A stretch of DNA of 11,080 nucleotides, taken from a virus. Its lineage: Duplodnaviria; Heunggongvirae; Uroviricota; Caudoviricetes. Positions within the stretch are counted from its first letter, which is position 1, and every line of letters begins with the position of its first letter. Of the stretch, positions 460 through 11,080 are shown piece by piece. The position numbers were made by a program, and so were the translations under genes. The stretch is taken from the IMG/VR virus record IMGVR_UViG_2778261641_000016, one strand, 5' to 3'. The notes beneath the pieces are model-generated. The model was given only the letters and a program-made list of their open reading frames with translations. It searched no databases and was not told the origin of the DNA.

Positions 460-505
460 ATTCGTAATGCGAAGGTCGTAGGTTCGACTCCTATTATCGG
501 CACCA
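460..505 (+). pseudogene. 3' half of a tRNA-Thr gene (thrW-type, anticodon loop through CCA); attachment-site remnant
   Basis: ATTCGTAATGCGAAGGTCGTAGGTTCGACTCCTATTATCGGCACCA contains an anticodon loop TTCGTAA (CGT), T-arm GTAGG-TTCGACT-CCTAT, acceptor 3' strand TATCGGC, discriminator A and CCA. The matching 5' acceptor strand GCCGATA is absent upstream, so this is a fragment and not a functional tRNA. Identity to E. coli thrW is from memory. Confidence 0.65.
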
Positions 506-1085
506 TCAACAGAAAATCCCGTAAAAACAGCATTCTTTAGCATGTTTATCTAACGGTTTGTAACTTCTGTTCTAACGTCTGTTAGCACTGGTAAACGCCT
601 TTGCGTTGTATCGGCTCAAGTATTGTACAACGTACTGGCGGGTAGTTACCAGGCTCAAGCCCGAACAGCATTAGAAATTATGCCATCCCTTGAAGCTAAA
701 AGAGTTGCCGGACTCTCTAAACACATCACTTGAACCCTTAGCGATACGTTCCGCGCTTCGTGCGGCGCTCAATGATGCTACACGTCGAGATGACGTTGCA
801 GAAAATAAACAGGCGTAATGTTGGGAAGACTAACCGGATCGGGAAAGAATCCGGCTCTGCCACGGTTTCGATCACCGGAGTATAACGATCACCTGATAAG
901 AGAACGTGCTAAGGCTTTATCCTCCCTGCGAAGGGATTACACCCTGCGGAAGCGCTACGCGCCGCCTTTTCTTATGTGCCCAACACGGCACGTAATGGTC
1001 ATCCATTATCTGCACCATTGTAACTTTCGTTGTACTGCCTCTCTGATGTACGTTGAGCGCTGGCAGATTCAGCGGAGGGGATATC

Positions 1086-1244
1086 ATGTCAAAAGCTAAC
1101 CAAAAAGCAGCCACGAAGCGCAACAACCGTAAGATTCACGCCCGTAAATTCCTGGCAACACCAGAGGGGAAAGCCTGGCTTGCTAAGAAGCAGGAAGAGC
1201 GAGAGGAAATCAAGTTGGCGCGAGCTGCAAACTTGATGTTTTGA
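1086..1244 (+). CDS. small, strongly basic hypothetical protein (52 aa)
   Basis: ATG at 1086 lies 6 nt after SD GGAGGG (1074-1079), in frame with track ORF 1053..1244. Product MSKANQKAATKRNNRKIHARKF... is Lys/Arg-rich. Stop TGA 1242-1244. Confidence 0.45.
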   Translation: MSKANQKAATKRNNRKIHARKFLATPEGKAWLAKKQEEREEIKLARAANLMF

Positions 1245-1247
1245 GAT

Positions 1248-1263
1248 GGGGCTAATCAGCCCC
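1248..1263. terminator. GC hairpin between convergent genes (possible terminator)
   Basis: GGGGCT-AATC-AGCCCC perfect 6-bp stem immediately after the stop of the 1086..1244 gene. It overlaps the stop codon of the convergent minus-strand gene and has no adjacent U-tract, so function is uncertain. Confidence 0.3.
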
Positions 1264-2029
1264 TATTGCCCCTATGCTTTTTTTCGAATCTTGTCACAAC
1301 TCTATCCAACCATTTGGGTTCTTCTCTAAGATCTGAGTAGTAACAATTTTCTGGAACCGCGTTCCAGAAAGCAGTTATTGCGTTAGCAAAATCTACAAAT
1401 TGATCTTCTGAGACATGTAAATCGTCATGGTTAGGGACAATCTGCGTGCCTCTAACATCGGTGGGGTTTGGGTAATACTCAGGATGATCAACTGATAGTG
1501 TTTGATGTGCAGGGCCGTCTCCATGCTTGTATACGTTTACCACCAAGTTACAGGCTTTTATCCTTTCTCCGTATTCGGTTCCATTGATTGTGAGGCCAAT
1601 CCATTCGAGCAAATCAATTAGCTGATGGAAAGTTAAATTCCAGATCATGGGGGTAATCAATTCTCTTTCACACCAATTACTTAGCTCTTTGATAGTATGT
1701 TCTCTTAGTTTTTTATCAAACTGATGATACATACCTGCTGTCAACGCCAACAATACGGTATTTTGCATCTCCAGAAGCGACCGTACATAATAAATTCCCT
1801 CATGATAGGCTTGCTCGTAGGCCGCCATTGGGTCATCGTTATCTTGATCAAAATACTCAGCAGTAGTCTCCAAAAACTGTTGTTCTCTCTTCTCTGCTTC
1901 TTGTTCTAAATCACCAAACTGAGAGAGAAGCCGCCGCCTTGCCTCAGAAACGTAAAATTCATGGGGTTCAAGAAAGTATGGAAGATCGGCTCTGGCTAAC
2001 CAGAAGGTGACAAAATTTTCAGTAGACAT
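1256..2029 (-). CDS. hypothetical protein (257 aa), function unknown
   Basis: Long minus-strand ORF. Preferred start is the ATG at 2029 (MSTENFVTFW...), preceded by SD GAGGAA with 4-6 nt spacing; the track start at 2056 has no SD. No motif I can assign. Confidence 0.6.
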   Translation of the reverse strand: MSTENFVTFWLARADLPYFLEPHEFYVSEARRRLLSQFGDLEQEAEKREQQFLETTAEYFDQDNDDPMAAYEQAYHEGIYYVRSLLEMQNTVLLALTAGMYHQFDKKLREHTIKELSNWCERELITPMIWNLTFHQLIDLLEWIGLTINGTEYGERIKACNLVVNVYKHGDGPAHQTLSVDHPEYYPNPTDVRGTQIVPNHDDLHVSEDQFVDFANAITAFWNAVPENCYYSDLREEPKWLDRVVTRFEKKHRGNRG

Positions 2030-2192
2030 ACATTTCCTCAATGAAGCGATAGACATTTTGAGGTTATGTTATCTTCGGTGAGGGTTAAAATCCTCAACTG
2101 ATTCAATGGAATTGTCATTTGGTTTGAAATGCGGTAAAAGAATAAAATTCGTAATGTACGCTTTGCAGAAACAATCTGAAAATGAGGTGGTT

Positions 2193-2420
2193 ATGAGTGA
2201 ACGTTACGAATTTTTACCCAATTGCTTCCTGAAAGTCTCTATCTCATCGGGTTACTTTACTGCCATCCTTGATGGTTCGCTTCCTCCTGATACCCCTGGT
2301 TCTGTTCATGCTGATAATGCCACGCAAGTCATAATCGTACTCGATTCCTACTTCCAATTGACTGACTTACAGCATCAAGGAATTGCTAATTATCTTTGCT
2401 CTCAAGGGATGGAACTTTGA
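2193..2420 (+). CDS. hypothetical protein (75 aa)
   Basis: ATG at 2193 preceded by SD GAGGTGG (2184-2190), in frame with track ORF 2106..2420. Divergent from the 257-aa gene. Confidence 0.4.
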   Translation: MSERYEFLPNCFLKVSISSGYFTAILDGSLPPDTPGSVHADNATQVIIVLDSYFQLTDLQHQGIANYLCSQGMEL

Positions 2421-2875
2421 TAGATTGGTTGCTTAATGTTGATAATCTGACCATGCTTGCCGCATGGGCTGGGTTTGCACTATCCATTTTCCAGCTATTA
2501 AAATCCAGAACAGATCTACGCCTTTTCTTAGGTTGCGATCAGTATGAAGACAGAATTTATGTTTCCAACAAAAGCGCCCATGATGTGACGATAAGTTCGG
2601 CGGGCATAGTAACCGCCAGCGGACGCCTTAGCGATTGTTCTAACGAACATTGTGATGAATACATGATCAGCCCCATGTTGCCACGCCGATTAAAAGCCCG
2701 TGATGAAATGATCTTAGAAGTACCATTCATCAATAAGGCTCACCATAATAAGGTGCATCATCGCGGAGGGGTGTATGTTACTACATCTGATGGGAAGCTG
2801 TTCAGTGATGTTAGTTGGCTGCGTCGTCGCTGGTGGTGGATATTGTCTCTGATCCTACGTGATTCCAAGCAGTGA
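2417..2875 (+). CDS. hypothetical protein with N-terminal hydrophobic (probable transmembrane) segment
   Basis: ORF in track (2396..2875) overlaps the stop of the upstream gene. Possible starts are TTG 2417 (after AGGGA at 2405-2409) or ATG 2453; the start is uncertain. Segment LAAWAGFALSIFQLL is hydrophobic. Confidence 0.4.
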   Translation: MIDWLLNVDNLTMLAAWAGFALSIFQLLKSRTDLRLFLGCDQYEDRIYVSNKSAHDVTISSAGIVTASGRLSDCSNEHCDEYMISPMLPRRLKARDEMILEVPFINKAHHNKVHHRGGVYVTTSDGKLFSDVSWLRRRWWWILSLILRDSKQ

Positions 2876-2933
2876 TTACTTATACACCGCACCAGACCAC
2901 GCTGGTTATCTGCTTGTCTTCCTTCTTCAATTG

Positions 2934-3131
2934 TTACTCCTCTTCAAAGGTCATTGTGTAGCGGCATTGCTGCGACGGCCTGAGCGTCACTGTCTCCGTA
3001 AAGTTGGCGTTGGAATAAACGCAAATCTTCGCGTTGTCTGTCTCCTGTTCGTCACTGAGAATCAGGGTTATCTGTCCGGCATTCGCCAGGACTGGCATTA
3101 CTGTCAGCGTCAGCACAAGCAAGCGTTTCAT
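2934..3131 (-). CDS. small secreted protein with Sec-type signal peptide (65 aa)
   Basis: ATG at 3131 preceded by perfect SD AAGGAG with 6-nt spacing. N-terminus MKRLLVLTLTVMPVLANA has an n-h-c signal-peptide layout. The SD overlaps the stop of the upstream recombinase gene, suggesting co-transcription. Confidence 0.55.
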   Translation of the reverse strand: MKRLLVLTLTVMPVLANAGQITLILSDEQETDNAKICVYSNANFTETVTLRPSQQCRYTMTFEEE

Positions 3132-3141
3132 GCGTATCTCC

Positions 3142-3702
3142 TTATAAGTCCATCTCATTGATCACACGGCTAACGGCTTGCTTGTCTAAATCCAGATAGC
3201 GCCTGGTGTCAGTGATGTTGCTGTGATTAAGCACGGTCATAGCTAAAGCGATGTTGTTTGCTGAACGCTTGTAGATGGCATTCCCGCCAGCTTTGCGGAA
3301 GCTGTGAGCTGATACAGTGCCATGAATACCGATAGCTTTAGCGGCCTCTGCGATCTGCTTGCTCACTTCTTCGCGTCGTACAGGCGCTTGCTTGTTCATT
3401 GATCGGTTACGCTGGCTTCTGAACACATGCACATCATGCGGATACTCAGCACGGCGACGAGCAATCATCTGCACCACTGGAGCAGGGAGAGTGAGGGCTT
3501 TACGCTTCCCTGTCTTCTGTTCTTCTATGTCAATCTCACCGTTGATCACTTCGTCGAAGCGTAACGCTACGGCATCCCCCACACGCAGTACAGCGGCTTG
3601 CATCATTAACGTAACGTCAGCTATCAGGCTCTTGTTATGAGCGTTTAGCCACTCCCTGATCGCTTTGGCTTGCTGTTCGTCTAACACTACTGCTCTGTTC
3701 AA
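3142..3702 (-). CDS. small tyrosine recombinase (catalytic domain only; FimB/FimE-size integrase/invertase, or truncated integrase)
   Basis: Product carries the catalytic signature in order: Arg in VLRVGDAVALRFDEV, HxxR in HSFRK, and HSNITDTRRY near the C-terminus. Probable start TTG at 3702 after SD GGGAGGG; the track start at 3774 is also TTG but has no SD. There is no N-terminal arm/core-binding domain. Confidence 0.65.
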   Translation of the reverse strand: MNRAVVLDEQQAKAIREWLNAHNKSLIADVTLMMQAAVLRVGDAVALRFDEVINGEIDIEEQKTGKRKALTLPAPVVQMIARRRAEYPHDVHVFRSQRNRSMNKQAPVRREEVSKQIAEAAKAIGIHGTVSAHSFRKAGGNAIYKRSANNIALAMTVLNHSNITDTRRYLDLDKQAVSRVINEMDL

Positions 3703-3799
3703 TTTACCCTCCCATAAAGACACACATCTAAACTCAACGAAACAAACAATATGATCAATTTCAGTAAGTTGCAATATAAATGATCAAAAATCGAACTGT

Positions 3800-4009
3800 C
3801 TTGTGTGTGGTAAATGGCGCGATTGCGTCCAGTGCTTAACGACCTCCAGGGCCGCCTCCAGATCGAAAATTTCTTCTCCTCTAAATATCTTGAACAAAAT
3901 CATGATGTTGGCATTTATAAACATGTGTTTGAACATTGCCAAATCCTCAACTCTGCACGAAGAACAGCGGCAACAGCGGAACATCACACTACCAATGCTT
4001 GTGTGTGGT
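3800..4009. repeat. pair of 12-bp direct repeats CTTGTGTGTGGT (3800-3811 and 3998-4009)
   Basis: Exact 12-mer present twice, 198 bp apart, directly upstream of the recombinase gene. Confidence 0.4.
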
Positions 4010-4080
4010 TATTGTCTATCTCATTGATTTAAATCTGATAAATGTAAGGTTGTTAGGCGAGGGCGGGGCTAACCTGCCTG

Positions 4081-4109
4081 TATGCACAAATTATGCGGAG
4101 TTTATGCAC
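4081..4109 (+). repeat. three TATGC(A/G) direct repeats phased at 11 bp (iteron-like)
   Basis: TATGCAC at 4081, TATGCGG at 4092, TATGCAC at 4103, with exact helical-turn spacing, directly after a GC box GGCGAGGGCGGGG (4056-4068). Confidence 0.4.
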
Positions 4110-4460
4110 TTGAAACTGAGTGTGTAATGAAATGATTAGAATGCTAATCAATTGGTGGATTTTGGCATGAAAAAGAAACATCGTTTCATTTTAGAAAACT
4201 CGTTCAGCACATTGCACCTGTCATGAAACTCCTCATTGTGGACAATGATCGCTGTGAGCCGCATGGCGCAAGGCTTTACGCAAAGTGAGTGATGGTTACT
4301 ATCTTGCTGACTATGGCAACTTTACCCATGTAACAACGGCAATCTTTACCTGTCATTTAAGATAGGCTTAGCTATGATTATCGTGTTGTTTTGATAGGAA
4401 TAACCTCTCGTTACTCTTAGTGTTGTTGCATGGATGAATCAGAGTTAGTTGGGGGCGTTA

Positions 4461-4541
4461 TACATCAAAATGATGTATAGATGCATGGGATACGCATCAA
4501 ATTGATGTATGGATCGGCAAACTACACATCAAATTGATGTT
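4461..4541. promoter_or_regulatory. array of three inverted-repeat sites CATCA-N3-TGATG phased at 32 bp (operator-like)
   Basis: tACATCAAAATGATGTa (centre 4469), cGCATCAAATTGATGTa (centre 4501), cACATCAAATTGATGTt (centre 4533). Half-site copies recur at the downstream promoters. Confidence 0.5.
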
Positions 4542-5091
4542 CTATACAAAGAGATTCTAAAAGCGATCTCTAAAAGAGAGCTTTTAGAAGATCTTGTTAA
4601 AGATTCGCTTTGCTGGCGCGTATCGCCTGGCAAGTGACCTGATTCGCCTTTGGGGGCTACTCGGTCAGCCGCTCACGACGCAGCGTAGCGCATCTGTCTG
4701 TGATTGTGCCAGGGCTTCGCCCTCGTGAAACGAGGCACAGAAGCTATGCGCCGTGTGCGCAATGTCTTTCAGCATAACTTCTGCCTGTCTTCCATGCTCC
4801 GCATTCATCCATGCAAAGTTAGCCCACGGCTAAGGATTCACTGGTCGCTGATGGCTCCAGTTCATCCAGCCTCAATCCAATACCATCACCTACTATCCTG
4901 ATAACTAACGTTATCCCTCAGTAGTTGTGCTATTGGTTTCGGGAGTAAGTGCCAGAGGGCGGCGGTAACGCAAACGGAACGCCCCAGACGCGCTGAGAGC
5001 GAATTTGAGAGGATAGGGAGGGGATTGCAACTCTCAGGCTTTCAAACCTGTTAGAAAGCGATAGACCGCGTTTTATGATGACATGAATGAA

Positions 5092-5120
5092 TTGATCACA
5101 ACGTGGAAATGCGCTATAAT
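5092..5120 (+). promoter_or_regulatory. sigma70-like promoter (TTGATC - 17 bp - TATAAT)
   Basis: -35 TTGATC at 5092-5097, 17-nt spacer, perfect -10 TATAAT at 5115-5120; points into the downstream operon. Confidence 0.5.
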
Positions 5121-5142
5121 TTGAAAGGGATTTAAATAAGTG

Positions 5143-5171
5143 TTGACATTTAAATCATTTCATGTTAAAGT
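5143..5171 (+). promoter_or_regulatory. second tandem sigma70-like promoter (TTGACA - 17 bp - TAAAGT with TG extension)
   Basis: Perfect -35 TTGACA at 5143-5148, 17-nt spacer, -10 TAAAGT at 5166-5171 preceded by TGt. The half-site AAATGATGTA (5172-5181) sits at the predicted transcription start. Confidence 0.45.
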
Positions 5172-5266
5172 AAATGATGTAGGGTAATGAAAGCATTCAT
5201 CCCGTCCTCATCTCAGGCATCCAGCCTAACGCAAACAATCCAACTTACACCGCACTATCAGGCAAC

Positions 5267-5515
5267 GTGATTAACGTTCTCCCTGGATGGTGTTTCTGTG
5301 TTTCTAACGCAAGGAGAACCAAAATTAAGTATTTTAATCCAGAACTTGTCTTCGAGGCTTTAAAGGCCGGAAGCCAGACGCGAAATGCAATAAACAGCCA
5401 GCGAGCAGCCGCACAACGGCAAGGATATTTCGAACACGCTGAAAGATTGCGTAAAGGAATCGAACTTTACGATCAATGGAAAGCTGAACAGGCTGAAACC
5501 ACCACCAACGAATAA
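5267..5515 (+). CDS. hypothetical protein; start codon uncertain
   Basis: Open frame in track from GTG 5267 to TAA 5513-5515. A strong SD AAGGAGAA (5311-5318) lies inside it but no in-frame ATG/GTG/TTG follows within 15 nt; only ATT at 5325. Confidence 0.35.
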   Translation: MINVLPGWCFCVSNARRTKIKYFNPELVFEALKAGSQTRNAINSQRAAAQRQGYFEHAERLRKGIELYDQWKAEQAETTTNE

Positions 5516-5533
5516 ACCAGAAGGAGAAACCAA

Positions 5534-5710
5534 ATGAGCGAAATCCAGAAGAAGAAACCAGCCGGAACATTCGTAAAACTGCCGGATGAAGTGTTTAGTA
5601 CTTTGTTCAAAGAGGCGCGAGCGAGAGGCGTAACAGTGCAGGAGATGTTAATTGACGCTGCAACCACACTTTCCACATCAATTAAGAACGGAGAACGTTC
5701 TACCAAATAA
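5534..5710 (+). CDS. small DNA-binding protein, ribbon-helix-helix-like (58 aa)
   Basis: ATG 5534 is 7 nt after perfect SD AAGGAG (5521-5526). Product MSEIQKKKPAGTFVKLPDEVFSTLFKEARARGVTVQEMLIDAA... has the beta-strand/helix/helix pattern of Arc/CopG-type proteins. Not in the ORF track because it is under 60 aa. Confidence 0.55.
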   Translation: MSEIQKKKPAGTFVKLPDEVFSTLFKEARARGVTVQEMLIDAATTLSTSIKNGERSTK

Positions 5711-5724
5711 GGATACACCCTAAC

Positions 5725-6465
5725 ATGACTGACATTATAAACAGTAAGGCTTTTAGTTTCACCAACACCGAAGACGCATTTAACGAATGCACCAGGATCA
5801 CCAATCTTAAAACAGGCGTAACAGAGTCCCTGTCTCCTGCTGATAAGCAGTTTTACGTCAGAATGCGCCATCGTTATTATCGCTTTGCGATAGAGTTGGG
5901 CGGTACTTATTACGATGACATTGATCAACTTGGTGCAAGTATTGGTGTCAGCTCGGCTACGGCAACACGTATTGTTGCAAAGTTGAAGAAAATCGGACTG
6001 ATCGCCAGTAATAAGCCAAAGCGCTCTAACCAATGGACTATAACGCCACTCACGCCGCAAAACTTCACCTTTGAACGTGATCGTAATGCGATGGAACGTG
6101 ATTCCGCGCCGGAATGGGTAGATTGTCTGAAACATCCCGTGTTTGGCAAAGCTAAAGAAGACGTAGCGCCAGAGGAAGAAAAACAGCAGTCAGTGCCAGA
6201 AGAGGCCAAAGCAGATCCGAAGCCGGAGAAGCCAAAGAAAATGCCTACGAAGAAACCCGCCTCCATTCCAGCTAAAGATATTAAGATAGAGCCAGTTAAT
6301 TTAAACTTTCTTGAGGGTTATCGGGATGAATGGGAGAATCCTGAAAAGAATCTACCAGTTTCACAACATCCGAAAATCAGATGGCTACTTATTAACGGAT
6401 ACCTGGACACAGAGAAGAATCCAAAACTTAAACCAATCTACGAGGAAATAGAACATTTATGCTGA
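5725..6465 (+). CDS. winged-helix DNA-binding protein with long Pro/Lys/Glu-rich linker (possible phage O-type replication initiator or regulator)
   Basis: 246-aa ORF. The N-terminal part has an HTH-like segment (DIDQLGASIGVSSATATRIVAKLKKIGLIAS), followed by a low-complexity linker (EEEKQQSVPEEAKADPKPEKPKKMPTKKPASIP). The domain layout resembles replisome-organiser proteins; assignment is from pattern only. Confidence 0.6.
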   Translation: MTDIINSKAFSFTNTEDAFNECTRITNLKTGVTESLSPADKQFYVRMRHRYYRFAIELGGTYYDDIDQLGASIGVSSATATRIVAKLKKIGLIASNKPKRSNQWTITPLTPQNFTFERDRNAMERDSAPEWVDCLKHPVFGKAKEDVAPEEEKQQSVPEEAKADPKPEKPKKMPTKKPASIPAKDIKIEPVNLNFLEGYRDEWENPEKNLPVSQHPKIRWLLINGYLDTEKNPKLKPIYEEIEHLC

Positions 6466-6920
6466 AAACGGTTATACCCAAACAATACAACGAACGTGAT
6501 CTTAACATCATCCATCTTGCCAGTTTATTAAATCCAGAAGTTGAAAGAGGTGTTGCATTCGAACAAGCGCAAGAACTTGTAGATGTTTACGCTGAGCGAG
6601 GTGAATCAAGTTACGCTAATGCTCTTGTTACGCTATTCAATGCAGCGATGAAGCCACCGAAAGAGATAGAATGTAAAATGACATCCCCACATCTTCACGA
6701 TAAGAATCTGTCTCCTTCGGAACGTCTGGTATTAATGCACCTCGAATCACTGCCATCATTAACAAATGTGAAACAGGAGTCAATAGCGATAGTGTTGGGG
6801 ATAAGTGTGGCAACTGTATCCAGTGCGATTCGCAAGCTTCGCCGCAATGATTATCTAACTACTACGTTAATCAAACCTGGTCGCGGTAAAGGATGCGACA
6901 TTACACTTACGACTAAATAA
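6459..6920 (+). CDS. hypothetical protein with C-terminal winged-helix DNA-binding motif (153 aa)
   Basis: Start overlaps the upstream stop (ATGCTGA), implying translational coupling. C-terminal region SPSERLVLMHLESL...ESIAIVLGISVATVSSAIRKLRRNDYL is HTH-like. Confidence 0.55.
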   Translation: MLKTVIPKQYNERDLNIIHLASLLNPEVERGVAFEQAQELVDVYAERGESSYANALVTLFNAAMKPPKEIECKMTSPHLHDKNLSPSERLVLMHLESLPSLTNVKQESIAIVLGISVATVSSAIRKLRRNDYLTTTLIKPGRGKGCDITLTTK

Positions 6921-7024
6921 CAACAATCGGGAAACTTTTATGATTACTGCTTTATGGTGGTTCACCATATTCTATGGCGTTTACGTTATAACCAGACAAG
7001 GAGTTTCCCCTCTACGAGGAATGA

Positions 7025-7408
7025 ATGGGACGAAAAGAACGAAGTAACCTTGTTAGAATCGAAAAAGCCACACGCATCAGCAAACGTAAATACACCTCTT
7101 CTCTACAAGACCTCGCACGAGAGTCTATTCCTGGTGAGATGGTGACAACTATTAAAGAATATCCCGCAGTAGTACCAAATGGATTAGAGTTTGAACTATT
7201 GCAGGATGTTCTATCGTCAACGGATAACGTTTATTACAAACCACGACGCAGACGCGAATATATTATAGATAGTAGCCATCTCAAGAAATGGCAAATAGCA
7301 GGATTTGAACATTACGCCGATTATATTGGGTATTGTCAAACCTGGGGGCTATCCCAGCACACACAAGAGTTTGATATTCTCTTTGACGACAAGGAAAACA
7401 ATGAATAA
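7025..7408 (+). CDS. hypothetical protein (127 aa), basic N-terminus
   Basis: ATG 7025 is 5 nt after GAGG (7016-7019). Its stop overlaps the next start (ATGAATAA). Confidence 0.5.
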   Translation: MGRKERSNLVRIEKATRISKRKYTSSLQDLARESIPGEMVTTIKEYPAVVPNGLEFELLQDVLSSTDNVYYKPRRRREYIIDSSHLKKWQIAGFEHYADYIGYCQTWGLSQHTQEFDILFDDKENNE

Positions 7409-7739
7409 TAAAACTATGGACACAGTGAACACCCTAATTAACTCTTTCCACGACAACTGGCATTTACCAACCTTACAGCTTGTTAATGCAGCGTGGCGTG
7501 AGAGAACGCCCTCCGCGCTTCTGGAAGCGGTGCAATACACTGAACAGGCAATCACTGCCCTTGAACATCTGCAAACGTCTGTAGCTCGTTTGGTGCAGCG
7601 TGACGGCAGTTCGATCACACCAGAAGAAGCGTGGCGTGTAGCTAATGACCTTGAGGAGCTTGCTTGCTCTCTGCAATACATCACCGTTGAACTCGGAGAG
7701 CTTTCCATCCAGATCGCGGAAGAATGCGCCATAACATAA
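7401..7739 (+). CDS. hypothetical protein (112 aa)
   Basis: ATG 7401 is 5 nt after AAGGA (7391-7395), in frame with track ORF 7305..7739. The longer track start has no SD. Stop TAA 7737-7739. Confidence 0.55.
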   Translation: MNNKTMDTVNTLINSFHDNWHLPTLQLVNAAWRERTPSALLEAVQYTEQAITALEHLQTSVARLVQRDGSSITPEEAWRVANDLEELACSLQYITVELGELSIQIAEECAIT

Positions 7740-7754
7740 AAGTTACTAAATGTC

Positions 7755-7783
7755 TTGACATTATGTGCTATATGTGTCATAAT
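7755..7783 (+). promoter_or_regulatory. near-consensus sigma70 promoter (TTGACA - 17 bp - TGtCATAAT)
   Basis: Perfect -35 TTGACA at 7755-7760, 17-nt spacer, extended -10 TGtCATAAT (7775-7783). It starts 16 bp after the stop of the upstream operon. Confidence 0.6.
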
Positions 7784-7789
7784 GAGTTA

Positions 7790-8334
7790 TAGGGTAAGTA
7801 TTCGAATCACTTCACCCTCGTATGTCAATACGCACTCCTTGAGAATGCCGTTCCCATAGCGGCATTCTCTCCCTCTGAATGCTATTTCTGAAAGTGTTGG
7901 TTCTTTGTCTTGTTTGTTCCGAAGGAATGCGCGGGATGTAATATCTCGTTGTGTTGGTATTGCATCGCAATCACCGCGCATCTCCGACTTTTTCAGAAAG
8001 GGCATTCGCTCTTTGCTCATTCATTCCGTTAGGATGAATGTAGTCAGACTGAATAAACGCCGTCAGCGGTAGTTACGTTCAGGCTGGCAATCTCTTATTA
8101 CTATTCCAGTGGTGATATTGAGATTCCATTCCCACTTCTCGCCATGACAGAAGGGCTTCTGTTTTGAAGTGGGAGCAATGACGGGCGATCCTACTTCTGT
8201 TATTCGTAACAGTTGCGCCCTTCATTTTTTCAAGAAGCCATTCTTTAACATCATAATCCTCCGAAACGAAAATGATTTTAACAGAATGCTTTCTAACAAG
8301 GGCATATTCTCCAGGGGCTTAATCGCCCCTTTTT
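7790..8334 (+). ncRNA. candidate ~545-nt non-coding leader transcript (promoter to intrinsic terminator); speculative
   Basis: No plus-strand ORF of 60 aa or more between the promoter and the terminator. Contains a perfect 10-bp stem hairpin (7841-7850 / 7860-7869). Only short ORFs without credible SD. Confidence 0.3.
8313..8334 (+). terminator. rho-independent terminator
   Basis: GGGGC-TTAATC-GCCCC stem-loop (8314-8329) followed directly by TTTTT (8330-8334). Confidence 0.6.
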
Positions 8335-8405
8335 AACAATCTGCATGTAACACTTCCGTTATCAATGGAAGGATAAACGCAGTTATAACGCGAAGGAACA
8401 ACACA

Positions 8406-8621
8406 ATGTTCTTAATAAACAATCGCGACCGAATCCTAAAATACAAATCCGAAGTGATTCAAGTTAATCCTGAGTTAATAGCTAAAGTGGCTGAAATGGC
8501 AGGATGTACCGTTGAAGAAATAGAAAAAGCTGTAGACCAGTATTTCCCTTCTGAGGACACACCTCAACTTAGTATGCAGGAACGGATCGCAATCAAATCC
8601 AAGGAAATCAAACAACAATGA
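8406..8621 (+). CDS. small hypothetical protein (71 aa), first gene of the head operon
   Basis: ATG 8406 is 7 nt after SD GAAGGAA. Its stop overlaps the start of the next gene (ATGA), implying translational coupling. Confidence 0.55.
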   Translation: MFLINNRDRILKYKSEVIQVNPELIAKVAEMAGCTVEEIEKAVDQYFPSEDTPQLSMQERIAIKSKEIKQQ

Positions 8622-8977
8622 TTGTAGACCTAACCGAACTTTTCCCAATTCGTAAGAGTTTCACTGACGTATTGAGCTACGCCACTGATTCTTTTGCAGT
8701 CGTAGAAGGCCGTGTTTTCGACCTGCCAGCAGATATTGAATGCGGCGATGTTATCGGCGCTGATGGCGCTCTATACACCTCCGGCGATGATGCCTTTGTG
8801 GTGGTAAGTGATTTCGTGAGTGCTGGCGACGGTAAAACCGTGAATGTCCTACGTGCGCCTAATGTTGGTAGCTTCGTAGCACTGAAAGCCGACAACCTGC
8901 ACGCAGCTAATCACGCCGCAGCTATCACCACGCTCGAATCCAAAGGGTTCGTATGCCGTCCATTCTTCACCTCTTAA
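8618..8977 (+). CDS. probable phage head decoration protein (119 aa)
   Basis: Gly/Ala/Asp/Val-rich small protein encoded immediately upstream of the major capsid gene, the same position as gpD before gpE in lambda-like heads. Assignment rests on position and composition, not on recognised sequence identity. Confidence 0.5.
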   Translation: MIVDLTELFPIRKSFTDVLSYATDSFAVVEGRVFDLPADIECGDVIGADGALYTSGDDAFVVVSDFVSAGDGKTVNVLRAPNVGSFVALKADNLHAANHAAAITTLESKGFVCRPFFTS

Positions 8978-8993
8978 TCAAGGAAGATAAATA

Positions 8994-10025
8994 ATGAGTA
9001 AAATCGCAATTGGGCGTGAGATGGTCGATTTAGCGCCAATCTTCCAGGCTCTGCCGGAACGTAACTATCTTATGAATGCCCTCGACCTATTCGACGGGGT
9101 AGGTGTTCAGAATCCGAAAGTGGTGGTGACACAGCTTCTGGATGATAACTACAGCCTGTTTAACACCCCGCAGAGCCGTTATTCATCAAACCACGACACT
9201 ACCGCGCGTCAGAATGGCAAAGAATACCTTATCGAGATTCCTTGGTTTGCAAGGGAAGATGAGTTTAAACCTGTAGACGTACAAGGCCGCAGAGTGCAGG
9301 GAACGGACTACGAGCAAACCGTTACCGACCTGTACACCGAATACACTGGCAAACATAAGATTGCTTATCTGCGTACCCGTGAGTCTTACCTGGCCCGTGC
9401 TCTGTTCAAAGGTGAAGTTTATACGCCTGCAACTGATGACCTACTGATCTCTTATGCTGAACTGTTCGGTGTGGTGCCAATGACAGCCAGCGTGAGCACA
9501 GCGACAGCGGCACAGGATTTTGATGCGATCTTAGACAAAGTTCAGGCTGCCGCAGGTGGATTGGCTGGACAGATTGAACGAGTGATCGTATTCGCTAAAC
9601 CTGCTGCATTTAGCCAGATTCGCTTCTCTGACAGTATGTCTAAGGCGTTCCAGTATGTAGCGCCATATGACGACCGTAACCTATTCTACCAGCGTCACGA
9701 GCTTCTCCCTGGTGTTAGTACGTTTAGCCTACCTGGTGCGCCTATCGACATTGTTAAAGTGACAGATCCGCTGATCCTTGCACAGATGCCAGATGATGCT
9801 GACATGGTGGCGGTTCCGGTGTTCAGTAAAGGCACAAATGCTTATCAGAACATCTACGGCGCTGCCTCTGGTAACTTTGCGCTGATCGATGCTGCACCTG
9901 CTGAATACTACTCTTGGGGCTACCTGAGCGAGCGCGGCGATGCTTACCACGTTATGCACGAAAACAGCGCATTACCAGTGAACCATGCGTTAGGTATGCA
10001 GGTGAAGATCACCATCACTGCTTAA
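8994..10025 (+). CDS. phage major capsid protein, lambda gpE-like (343 aa)
   Basis: ATG 8994 after AAGGAAG. Length matches the 341-aa lambda E protein, and local blocks (ALFKGEVY, VIVFAKP...F) resemble E-family blocks as I recall them. It follows the decoration-like gene. Confidence 0.75.
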   Translation: MSKIAIGREMVDLAPIFQALPERNYLMNALDLFDGVGVQNPKVVVTQLLDDNYSLFNTPQSRYSSNHDTTARQNGKEYLIEIPWFAREDEFKPVDVQGRRVQGTDYEQTVTDLYTEYTGKHKIAYLRTRESYLARALFKGEVYTPATDDLLISYAELFGVVPMTASVSTATAAQDFDAILDKVQAAAGGLAGQIERVIVFAKPAAFSQIRFSDSMSKAFQYVAPYDDRNLFYQRHELLPGVSTFSLPGAPIDIVKVTDPLILAQMPDDADMVAVPVFSKGTNAYQNIYGAASGNFALIDAAPAEYYSWGYLSERGDAYHVMHENSALPVNHALGMQVKITITA

Positions 10026-10088
10026 TGAGCAAGCGGGAGCCTGACCCGCTGGAAATAATCAGGCTATTGAATAGGGCGTGTGAACGTT

Positions 10089-10121
10089 GGGAACATCTCC
10101 CCAGTGTTCCCGCCCTTTTTT
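10089..10121 (+). terminator. probable intrinsic terminator after the capsid gene
   Basis: GGGAACA-(9 nt loop)-TGTTCCC stem (10089-10111), then GCCC and TTTTTT (10116-10121). Confidence 0.45.
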
Positions 10122-10144
10122 ATTTCCAGAATGAGGAAAGATAA

Positions 10145-10342
10145 ATGCAAGTGATTGTAAAAAGCGCGGGGCTTCACCTCGCCGTAAATGCTGAAACAGC
10201 AGAAGAGTTATTAAATCTGGCGGGAGTGTGTCGTGTGCTTGAAATAGATCACGGTCATCTACGTCAGTTATTACATCGTGGGCGTAGTGTATCAGATGCA
10301 CTTAATTATCTGGTGAGTAAAAAAGGCGGTGGCGATGCTTGA
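10145..10342 (+). CDS. hypothetical protein (65 aa)
   Basis: ATG 10145 after strong SD GAGGAAAG. Its stop overlaps the start region of the next ORF. Confidence 0.5.
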   Translation: MQVIVKSAGLHLAVNAETAEELLNLAGVCRVLEIDHGHLRQLLHRGRSVSDALNYLVSKKGGGDA

Positions 10343-10799
10343 GATTAATACAAGTAAGATCGTCAACACCGTAACTTTCACCGTTGACAAAGGGAGTATT
10401 GCAGAGGCTAAGGCCGCAGCGGATAACCTTCAAAAGCACTTCCAGAAAATAGCCGATCCCAAGATTCGCTTCCAGGATCTGAAGCAGCGCAGACAGAAAG
10501 CCCGTCAACAAGCCGATGATGCACGTTTTAATGATAAGCCTCGTGATACGAAGGAAATGAAAGCCCAACGTGCGGCGGAGAAGCAGAAAGCCAGGGATGA
10601 AAAGGCCAATCTGAAAGCGAAGCAGCAGCTACAGAAGCGCCAAGAGACAGCCGAGCTTAAACTTCGCCATGCAGGGCTACAAGTGTCAGGAATTAAAGGT
10701 AAATACGGGCTTGATCCTAAATCTCAGTATGAAGCGTTACGTTATATTCATCAGCAAAGCGAAGAGTTTGCGAAAAGGGTATTAACTTTCGCAGCCTGA
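10329..10799 (+). CDS. hypothetical protein, highly charged Lys/Arg/Glu/Gln-rich central region (156 aa)
   Basis: Track ORF overlapping the upstream stop (start ATG 10329 or 10335). Its last ~8 codons are read out of frame from invertase-homologous DNA. Confidence 0.5.
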   Translation: MAMLEINTSKIVNTVTFTVDKGSIAEAKAAADNLQKHFQKIADPKIRFQDLKQRRQKARQQADDARFNDKPRDTKEMKAQRAAEKQKARDEKANLKAKQQLQKRQETAELKLRHAGLQVSGIKGKYGLDPKSQYEALRYIHQQSEEFAKRVLTFAA

Positions 10800-11080
10800 C
10801 CGACAGCATAGATACGTCTTCACCAATGGGACGCTTTTTCTTCCATGTCATGGGCGCACTTGCAGAAATGGAAAGGGAGCTGATAGTCGAACGTACCAGG
10901 GCGGGATTGGCTGCGGCTCGTGAAGAAGGGCGAATAGGTGGGCGTCGATCAAAGCTAACTGATGAACAGTGGGCGCAGGCAGGCAGGTTGATTGCAGCAG
11001 GTGAATCACGACAGCGTGTGGCATTAATTTACGATGTTGGGATATCGACGCTATATAAAAAATTTCCGGCAACCAGGTAA
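10772..11080 (+). pseudogene. serine DNA invertase (Pin/Gin/Hin family) C-terminal fragment, lacking the catalytic N-terminus; runs off the window end
   Basis: Translation EKGINFRSLTDSIDTSSPMGRFFFHVMGALAEMERELIVERTRAGLAAAREEGRIGGRRSKLTDEQWAQAGRLIAAGESRQRVALIYDVGISTLYKKFPATR closely matches the C-terminal half of e14 Pin as I remember it. The frame is closed by TGA at 10730-10732 and no serine-nucleophile N-terminal domain exists in any frame upstream. Confidence 0.65.

Follow-up and report, generated by a model that had tools for sequence, protein, structure and literature searches.

Why would a mobile island carry a tyrosine recombinase that consists of a catalytic domain alone? The question is raised by the gene at positions 3142-3702 of an 11,080-nucleotide stretch of Caudoviricetes DNA, IMG/VR record IMGVR_UViG_2778261641_000016; the whole stretch is called the window below. 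An earlier note, made from the sequence alone, had described a stand-alone enzyme and offered two explanations for it, a decayed island integrase or a dedicated invertase of a nearby switch. Our comparisons point elsewhere. The gene encodes an intact accessory recombinase of an island family, it is inherited together with the non-coding DNA upstream of it, and we propose tentatively that the enzyme acts on a site within that DNA.

The gene, its ribosome-binding sequence and its promoter-like element lie as follows.

3142-3702, minus strand: coding sequence (CDS) of the short tyrosine recombinase, 186 amino acids (aa), TTG start, catalytic domain only
3707-3712, minus strand: Shine-Dalgarno sequence GGAGGG, 4 nt ahead of the TTG, kept among close relatives in the alignment
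3746-3774, minus strand: promoter-like element, TTGCAA (3769-3774) and TATTGT (3746-3751) separated by 17 nt, conserved in a 13-island alignment

The TTG start codon is the complement of 3700-3702 and GGAGGG the complement of 3707-3712. PGAP calls the identical 186-aa CDS (WP_032937054.1) in Escherichia coli AR_0128. A longer open reading frame (ORF) of 210 aa, 3142-3774, was rejected; its TTG at 3772-3774 falls within the conserved -35 hexamer.

The protein matches Pfam PF00589 over profile positions 2-171 of 172 (E=3.5e-16), and the alignment to the Phage_integrase family that had been suggested as a check scored 59.9 bits against a cut-off of 27.1. Thirteen aligned sequences, the most distant at 26% identity, share R40, K63 (in the motif EQKTGK), H133-x-x-R136, H160 and Y169 without exception, and these residues include the Arg, HxxR and Tyr signatures already recognized in the earlier note. 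K63 pairs with K172 of XerD, by a residue count made by hand on the hhalign alignment. An AlphaFold2 model (pLDDT 92.1, pTM 0.88) consists of one catalytic-domain fold, and Foldseek matched it with probability 1.0 to the corresponding domains of XerH, XerA, lambda Int and Cre; it also superposes on that of IntI4. The model has no core-binding or arm-binding domain, nor anything equivalent to the N-terminal domains of these matches. The view of a recombinase without N-terminal DNA-binding domains was thus correct, as was its likening in size to FimB and FimE (186 aa compared with 200 and 198 aa). No defence-system model of PADLOC matched the protein. On its sequence, the product of 3142-3702 is a complete and intact tyrosine recombinase made of the catalytic domain only, and it is predicted to carry out strand exchange.

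The short length is a property of the whole family. A word-indexed search found 25 homologues and, fragments aside, all are 185-195 aa long, down to 28% identity. When 1.84 billion representatives were searched exhaustively with a profile, 449 clusters passed E<=1e-30; of these, the 150 best are nearly all 180-200 aa with an end-to-end profile match. A second profile search returned more than 6100 proteins at E<=1e-10, under generic names only. Nearly all homologues keep a length of about 180-200 aa down to approximately 25% identity. We found that close relatives differ by 22-37 synonymous and 2-7 non-synonymous codon changes (for example 28 and 4, 22 and 2, 34 and 3). Because synonymous changes far outnumber non-synonymous ones, the gene is evidently under purifying selection, and by these searches the protein belongs to a very large, uncharacterized family of enzymes of about 180-200 aa.

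These results bear directly on the proposal that the gene is the decayed C-terminal remnant of an island integrase. That proposal drew on the ORF at 3784-3987, which does lie upstream in frame with the recombinase and behind a single TGA, as had been seen, and on the lack of any other tyrosine recombinase in the window. The ORF, however, is not conserved: relatives have frame-breaking indels and heavy substitution across 3816-3892, and a conserved Shine-Dalgarno sequence and promoter-like element sit immediately upstream of the recombinase gene. On the remnant reading, homologues would be full-length integrases with this copy plainly truncated; they are instead consistently 180-200 aa. The gene is under selection, and the true integrase, only remotely similar, stands at the other end of intact islands. 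We consider a decayed integrase refuted by the homologue lengths, the codon differences, the non-conserved upstream ORF and the real integrase elsewhere, and give it next to no likelihood.

That integrase is missing from the window. The window holds one attachment (att) arm.

460-505, plus strand: 3' 46 nt of tRNA-Thr (thrW), the attL-side core; its last 19 nt are the repeat found at attR

Positions 460-10774 are 99.99-100% identical to a thrW-adjacent segment in nine E. coli chromosomes. Compared with AR_0128 (L001), the window has a 10,680-bp deletion (L001 27976-38655) with about 3 bp of microhomology and a junction at 10772-10775, which leaves a TolA-like ORF joined in frame with a Pin-type serine invertase (10775-11080), of which the C-terminal half remains. 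The large integrase and attR were lost from the window through this deletion, and the short recombinase looked stand-alone because of it. The final 19 nt of thrW recur just past the large integrase in L001 and in E. coli XYEH3934 (L004), giving an island of 13.5-13.7 kb (L001 17661-31409; L004 8001-21574). The large integrase is about 405 aa, combines DUF6538 with PF00589 and adjoins attR in intact islands. We found no near-identical DNA in plasmid or phage collections.

The complete island begins at att with variable cargo, followed by the short recombinase, transcribed leftward, and 1.5-1.9 kb of non-coding DNA with an iteron origin. A rightward replication module, a decoration-like gene, a capsid-E gene, a TolA-like gene of about 620 aa, the large integrase and the second att come after it. 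In L004, the order starts with thrW, variable genes, the leftward short recombinase, a gap of about 1.5 kb and the rightward replication module; next come four small ORFs, the Phage_cap_E major capsid gene, the TolA-like gene of about 620 aa, two small ORFs and a leftward integrase of 404 aa. The same synteny was seen in E. coli, Citrobacter, Leclercia, Kluyvera, Phytobacter, Buttiauxella, Enterobacter and Pseudenterobacter and in IMG/VR provirus calls, and it holds at short-recombinase identities of 96-99%, 63-66% and 41-44%. Even in E. coli E203449 (L133), with an island at tRNA-Leu, the same slot holds a catalytic-domain-only recombinase of 192 aa that is 24% identical.

Other parts of the island vary independently of the short recombinase. 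These are the large integrase (33-65% identity between islands), the cargo, the att site (thrW, tRNA-Gly, tRNA-Leu and others) and the replication module, which is either DUF6945 with HTH_36 or a DEAD-box helicase. In hhalign comparisons the short recombinase scored 44.5 against the large integrase (probability 84.5%), 79.7 against FimE and 63.2 against XerD. The gene lies about 2.6 kb from attL and not beside att. Since a separate large integrase is present and the two are only remotely related, the short enzyme is, as far as sequence comparison tells, a conserved accessory (second) recombinase and not the integration enzyme.

Further elements adjoin the island in some genomes. Positions 1-459 of the window are the end of a different prophage, with the C-terminus of a tail-fibre assembly gene and 234 bp more, and abut the 46-nt thrW fragment. 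In the source genome, thrW therefore seems to be occupied by a tandem stack of elements. Citrobacter sp. NCU1 (L013 159-12000 and 13133-20227) carries two islands in tandem with different large integrases.

The gene set of the island resembles that of a phage satellite. It comprises the replication module, a decoration-like gene of 119 aa, Phage_cap_E, the TolA-like gene of about 620 aa and an integrase of its own, and it has no terminase, portal or tail genes. Like satellites of the phage-inducible chromosomal island (PICI) or P4 type, it is an att-flanked element in the range of about 10-15 kb with an integrase, replication genes and few morphogenesis genes. Among 50,697 phage records the capsid protein had one weak match (27% identity) and no close relative. 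Two parts of the window are needed here.

5267-6920, plus strand: replication module (82-aa ORF, 58-aa ORF, DUF6945 Rep-like protein, HTH_36 protein)
1173-3141: cargo region of variable content that separates the att arm from the recombinase stop codon

L015, whose recombinase is only 41% identical, shares the three main cargo ORFs (266, 104 and 159 aa) at 93% identity. Within 1173-3141 we obtained no PADLOC or Pfam match, the sole assignment being phrog_19541 for the 266-aa protein. At the cargo position L133 carries a superinfection-exclusion gene of the sieB family. Taken together, the island looks like an undescribed satellite-type family across Enterobacteriaceae. A non-exhaustive literature search found no published description of the island, of DUF6945 or of short "second integrases"; PMC6177240 was set aside as a description, since it concerns an unrelated ampC island.

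We then compared 13 islands. The recombinase gene and about 0.5-0.65 kb of upstream DNA are inherited as one module, which travels with the gene whatever the cargo, replication module, integrase or att site. In L003, L004 and L011 homology stops exactly at the recombinase stop codon (3141/3142); in other islands it ends on that side at about 3063-3067 or at 2930. The upstream part contains the following.

3703-4365: upstream non-coding module, inherited with the recombinase gene; its right limit varies from about 4209 to 4365
3800-3816, plus strand: direct repeat copy 1, CTTGTGTGTGGT, repeat family D4
3998-4014, plus strand: direct repeat copy 2, CTTGTGTGTGGT, repeat family D4
3908-3942: imperfect 35-bp palindrome TTGGCA-N23-TGCCAA, candidate recombination site 1
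4080-4110, plus strand: three direct TTATGCR-type repeats at 11-nt spacing, GTATGCACA, TTATGCGGA and TTATGCACT
4130-4153: 9-6-9 palindrome AAATGATTA GAATGC TAATCAATT, candidate recombination site 2

The sequence TGATCA, which contains GATC, occurs at 3752-3757 within the promoter spacer and again at 3781-3786. The motif TGAAAWTGATCA is retained even in the 24%-identical module of L133. The TGATCA pair, with its Dam GATC sites beside the recombinase promoter, may couple expression to methylation or replication. A comparable coupling has been reported for cre of P1.

Two candidate recombination sites stand out in the module. Read as a 14-7-14 site, the 35-bp palindrome is symmetric at 10 of 14 positions; it is single-copy within an island and lies at a constant distance, 230-240 nt, from the start codon. 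The 9-6-9 palindrome was the sole lox-like palindrome that a formal scan detected within the module. Neither candidate is perfectly symmetric or kept in every island, and their co-variation with the recombinase group is not clean, mixed combinations being found. The TTATGCR-type triple repeat is present in all three close recombinase groups. Searches of the 50,697 phage records for second copies of the module or its palindromes gave only noise at E>=0.1, the GTAACA-type half-site of some distant relatives does not occur in the module, and no Rfam family was found in the non-coding region at E<=0.1.

The earlier note had named the 12-bp direct repeats at 3800 and 3998, and palindromes at 4461-4541, as candidate targets. 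The direct repeats exist, with 12 exact bases and 15 of 17 overall, one on either side of the 35-bp palindrome. Only the six islands with a 96-99% identical recombinase retain both, and the repeats are a weak candidate for an accessory site. The palindromes also exist, as part of a triple repeat beyond the module.

4446-4541: three palindromic iterons ACATCAAAWTGATGT at 32-bp spacing, repeat family D1, replication origin

In other islands wholly different iterons replace these between conserved flanks. The window and L003 have 98% identical recombinases and different iterons; the window and L017 have 41% identical recombinases, the same iterons and Rep N-termini that are 90% identical. The palindromes were rejected as a recombinase target on this ground, for they differ between near-identical enzymes and are shared between distant ones. 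Because iteron type does not follow the recombinase, we assign the palindromes at 4446-4541, from these comparisons, as replication-origin iterons.

At least five unrelated iteron types occur at this position (window 4446-4541 and the homologous positions in L003, L013, L015, L016, L018 and L021), which by this comparison is a swappable origin-specificity cassette. Further right, a long imperfect hairpin at 4870-4935 lies in a block that is about 80% conserved across islands with 41%-identical recombinases. Its folding energy is unexceptional (z=-1.06, minus strand) and it has no Rfam match; the hairpin may serve as a regulatory RNA or belong to the origin.

Small-scale variation was also seen in the right part of the module. 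At 4257-4275, AGCC and GGCT enclose an 11-bp core (4261-4271) that is reverse-complemented in L012 and L014, a micro-inversion of the hairpin-loop type, and in the palindrome CATTGTGGACAATG (4234-4247) the central GG/CC is flipped between islands. A possible 21-codon ORF, MKLLIVDNDRCEPHGARLYAK, lies at 4223-4288 on the plus strand, with a counterpart MEVLIVDNDRCKPCAVRLYAK in L012 read by eye; it falls within the most conserved non-coding block, 4120-4352.

Could the enzyme instead be a dedicated invertase of the FimB/FimE kind, which flips the 3.8-5.2-kb non-coding segment or the cargo and so switches island gene expression? Its architecture and size fit, and hhalign aligned residues 6-168 with 5-173 of the 198 residues of FimE at 97.7% probability. 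BLASTP against FimB, however, gave only E=5.3, so the likeness to FimB/FimE suggested in the earlier note holds end to end at the profile level and is lost in pairwise comparison. The DNA around the gene offers one possible switch, the only strong inverted-repeat pair in the window, which is a perfect 14-bp repeat enclosing 363 bp.

4426-4439: left arm of the perfect 14-bp inverted repeat, inverted pair I7, flanks the iterons
4803-4816: right arm of the same 14-bp inverted repeat, inverted pair I7

This pair flanks the origin iterons and is absent from L004, L011, L012, L013, L014 and L053, whose recombinases are 98-99% identical; it was rejected as the ends that a switch would require. No other inverted-repeat pair is conserved or co-inherited with the recombinase gene. 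BLAST of the full island against 22 related loci found all of them colinear and no inverted segment, in assemblies that show the majority orientation only. Nine E. coli genomes are likewise identical and colinear, these being consensus assemblies that could hide a rare flipped subpopulation.

More favourable to inversion are three distant lineages in which the gene is bracketed by inverted lox-like sites of 25-31 nt. In a Firmicute locus (L046-48; L046 7793-8877) the gene lies beside csrA-flagellin between 31-nt inverted arms 1023 bp apart, the site being ATGCAACGGTT-TGTCTA-AACTGTTGCAT. In Gastranaerophilales (L039/L040; L040 9835-10488) 31-nt inverted arms lie 592 bp apart around the gene. 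In Lachnospiraceae (L135-L138; L137 3763-4796) the gene stands between divergent polysaccharide operons with arms 984 bp apart, and the site is GTAACATAA-TAGAGA-TTATGTTAC. The bracketed relatives are about 190 aa long and 25-30% identical, and their sites have arms of about 9-11 bp and a spacer of 4-6 bp. All three are probable self-inverting phase-variation cassettes of the tyrosine type. Because these loci show lox-like sites, the family seems able to use ordinary core sites without a core-binding domain. In two metagenome cases (P0228 and P0273) an identical gene has different neighbours between contigs.

Most phage- and plasmid-borne members have no inverted-site pair, and several distant homologues have a single lox-like palindrome 50-400 bp upstream. 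For the island under study the invertase reading is unsupported by these comparisons; the switch proposed in the earlier note has no co-inherited inverted repeats among colinear loci, and we regard it as unlikely.

The reading that we favour, tentatively and as somewhat short of probable, has the enzyme act on a single site in the upstream module and thereby resolve or circularize the island. The substrate would be one site within the module, for which 3908-3942 and 4130-4153 are the candidates. In a single integrated copy there would be no partner site and hence no reaction. An excised, replicating island or a delivered concatemer would contain two directly repeated copies of the site, and recombination between them would resolve multimers or circularize the DNA into monomers. 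This would be the job that Cre/loxP does in P1 and Xer/cer in plasmids. By binding beside its own promoter, the enzyme may also autoregulate its gene. The full combination, in which Cre/lox-like resolution, circularization and self-regulation form a module cassette in undescribed, capsid-gene-carrying, tRNA-integrating satellites, is possible and rather doubtful.

Several observations are consistent with action at a single site. The 35-bp palindrome occurs once per island, no inverted pair is co-inherited and the 22 related loci are free of inversions. Replication of the element is suggested by the Rep-like genes and variable iterons near the gene. Relatives are consistent with resolution too: homologues occur on 323 plasmid records, a circular E. 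coli plasmid of 20.7 kb has one as its sole annotated recombinase, in the streptococcal phage Javan477 the homologue is a second recombinase alongside a 398-aa integrase, and several distant homologues have one lox-like palindrome upstream.

Other points weigh against resolution at a single site. No recombination event was observed or detectable in the sequence data examined, and excision and replication of the island are themselves what we infer from its genes. L009 and L133 lack the 35-bp palindrome, L004, L011 and L053 have only a degenerate form, and the element could equally be read as a second promoter (TTGGCA, 17 nt, TATAAA). The 9-6-9 palindrome is conserved in position and varies in its left arm. 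The characterized catalytic-domain-only enzymes, FimB and FimE, are invertases, and the family likely includes further invertases in the three independent distant lineages. Characterized tyrosine-type resolvases such as Cre and XerC/D carry a core-binding domain, which the 186-aa protein does not have.

The position of the gene suggests a different role, in which the protein is a DNA-binding regulator, an immunity-like repressor of the divergent replication operon, with catalysis secondary, as for Tn3 resolvase at res. In islands of the PICI/SaPI type, the slot that the gene occupies belongs to the master repressor, and no other leftward gene that faces the rightward replication operon is conserved. 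We recognized no repressor of the cI/Stl kind in the island, and strongly conserved promoter-proximal motifs surround the gene's own promoter. The six catalytic residues, however, are invariant across the family, and a pure repressor would not need them. The 58-aa ORF of the rightward operon, ribbon-helix-helix-like by eye, could itself be the regulator, and we know of no catalytic-domain-only tyrosine recombinase that serves as an immunity repressor. A repressor role seems to us improbable.

The cargo boundary raises one more possibility, that the enzyme acts on DNA outside the module, either at a helper-phage or chromosomal site or in exchange of the adjacent cargo. The exact end of homology at the recombinase stop codon in L003, L004 and L011 would fit such exchange, as would the sharing of cargo at 93% identity over 1.6 kb with L015 despite recombinases that are 41% identical. 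The cargo breakpoints (3141, about 3065 and 2930) nevertheless differ between islands, and the exchange is therefore not site-specific. The cargo also lies 3' of the gene, unlike that of an integron, and the module has no significant match in the 50,697 phage records. We give action on outside DNA a slim chance. Whatever probability remains beyond the five readings named here belongs to something that we have not considered.

The gene is already annotated in generic terms; what is not assigned is the role of the "second integrase" family of about 190 aa. Thousands of phages, plasmids and islands carry such a generically annotated protein. The island family provides a clean setting for this question: the gene always stands in one slot, is exchanged along with the DNA upstream of it and does not depend on the integrase or on att specificity. 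A role in resolution or circularization, if true, would account for the monomeric genomes of small replicating satellites. Such a role would be the first function assigned to a very large family of catalytic-domain-only enzymes of about 190 aa, and would mean that a tyrosine recombinase without a core-binding domain can do resolution as well as inversion. Novelty may lie rather in the host island itself, perhaps a satellite of a new type, with a cargo hotspot and with capsid-E, decoration-like and TolA-like genes that have no close relative in phages.

How does the enzyme compare with known systems? In the 2021 classification of tyrosine recombinases every class has at least a core-binding and a catalytic domain (PMC8138268), and catalytic-domain-only enzymes are for that reason poorly covered. 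Arm-type integrases have at least 330 aa, N-terminal domains and a place beside att; the island enzyme has 186 aa and lies about 2.6 kb from attL. Integron integrases also differ, as TIGR02249 scored 20 bits against a cut-off of 265, and the variable cargo is 3' of the gene with breakpoints that vary. An NCBIfam scan returned weak Xer and integron-integrase matches only.

Among Xer proteins are the closest solved structure by sequence, the XerA-like 4a8e (E=5e-18), and the closest NCBIfam model, NF040815 (E=6e-11). The scores, however, stay far below the cut-offs for XerA (42 bits, cut-off 220), XerD (29, cut-off 330) and XerC (28, cut-off 335). The island enzyme has no SAM-like N-terminal domain (PF02899), and no dif-like site was found in the window at up to 3 mismatches.

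FimB and FimE share with it a size of about 200 aa, the catalytic domain without core- or arm-binding domains and the end-to-end profile alignment (97.7%). They are unlike it in having no significant pairwise similarity (BLASTP E=5.3), and the island gene has no short inverted-repeat pair flanking a promoter segment and showed no orientation variants. FimB and FimE are chromosomal adhesin regulators, whereas the island gene is a core gene of a mobile island. The self-inverting relatives (L046-48, L039/L040 and L135-L138) belong to the same family of about 190 aa; unlike the island gene, theirs lies between two inverted sites. In function they would be comparable to Hin/Gin cassettes and to RecV-type switches of C. 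difficile.

The "second integrases" of streptococcal temperate phages such as Javan477 and of Firmicute and Vibrio plasmids are of the same family at 26-31% identity, and there too a short enzyme stands beside a full-length integrase or on a circular replicon. In Javan477 the gene lies between early and packaging genes and not, as in the island, beside an iteron origin. Cre of P1 has 343 aa, an N-terminal core-binding domain and a perfect 13-8-13 site, whereas the island protein has 186 aa and no perfect lox-like site. The two are similar at the level of the fold only, and a shared function would be one of analogy. The proposed likeness to Cre/loxP lies in the arrangement, with one recombinase and one adjacent site on an element that has another lifestyle module, and in both cases the recombinase gene adjoins replication and packaging functions.

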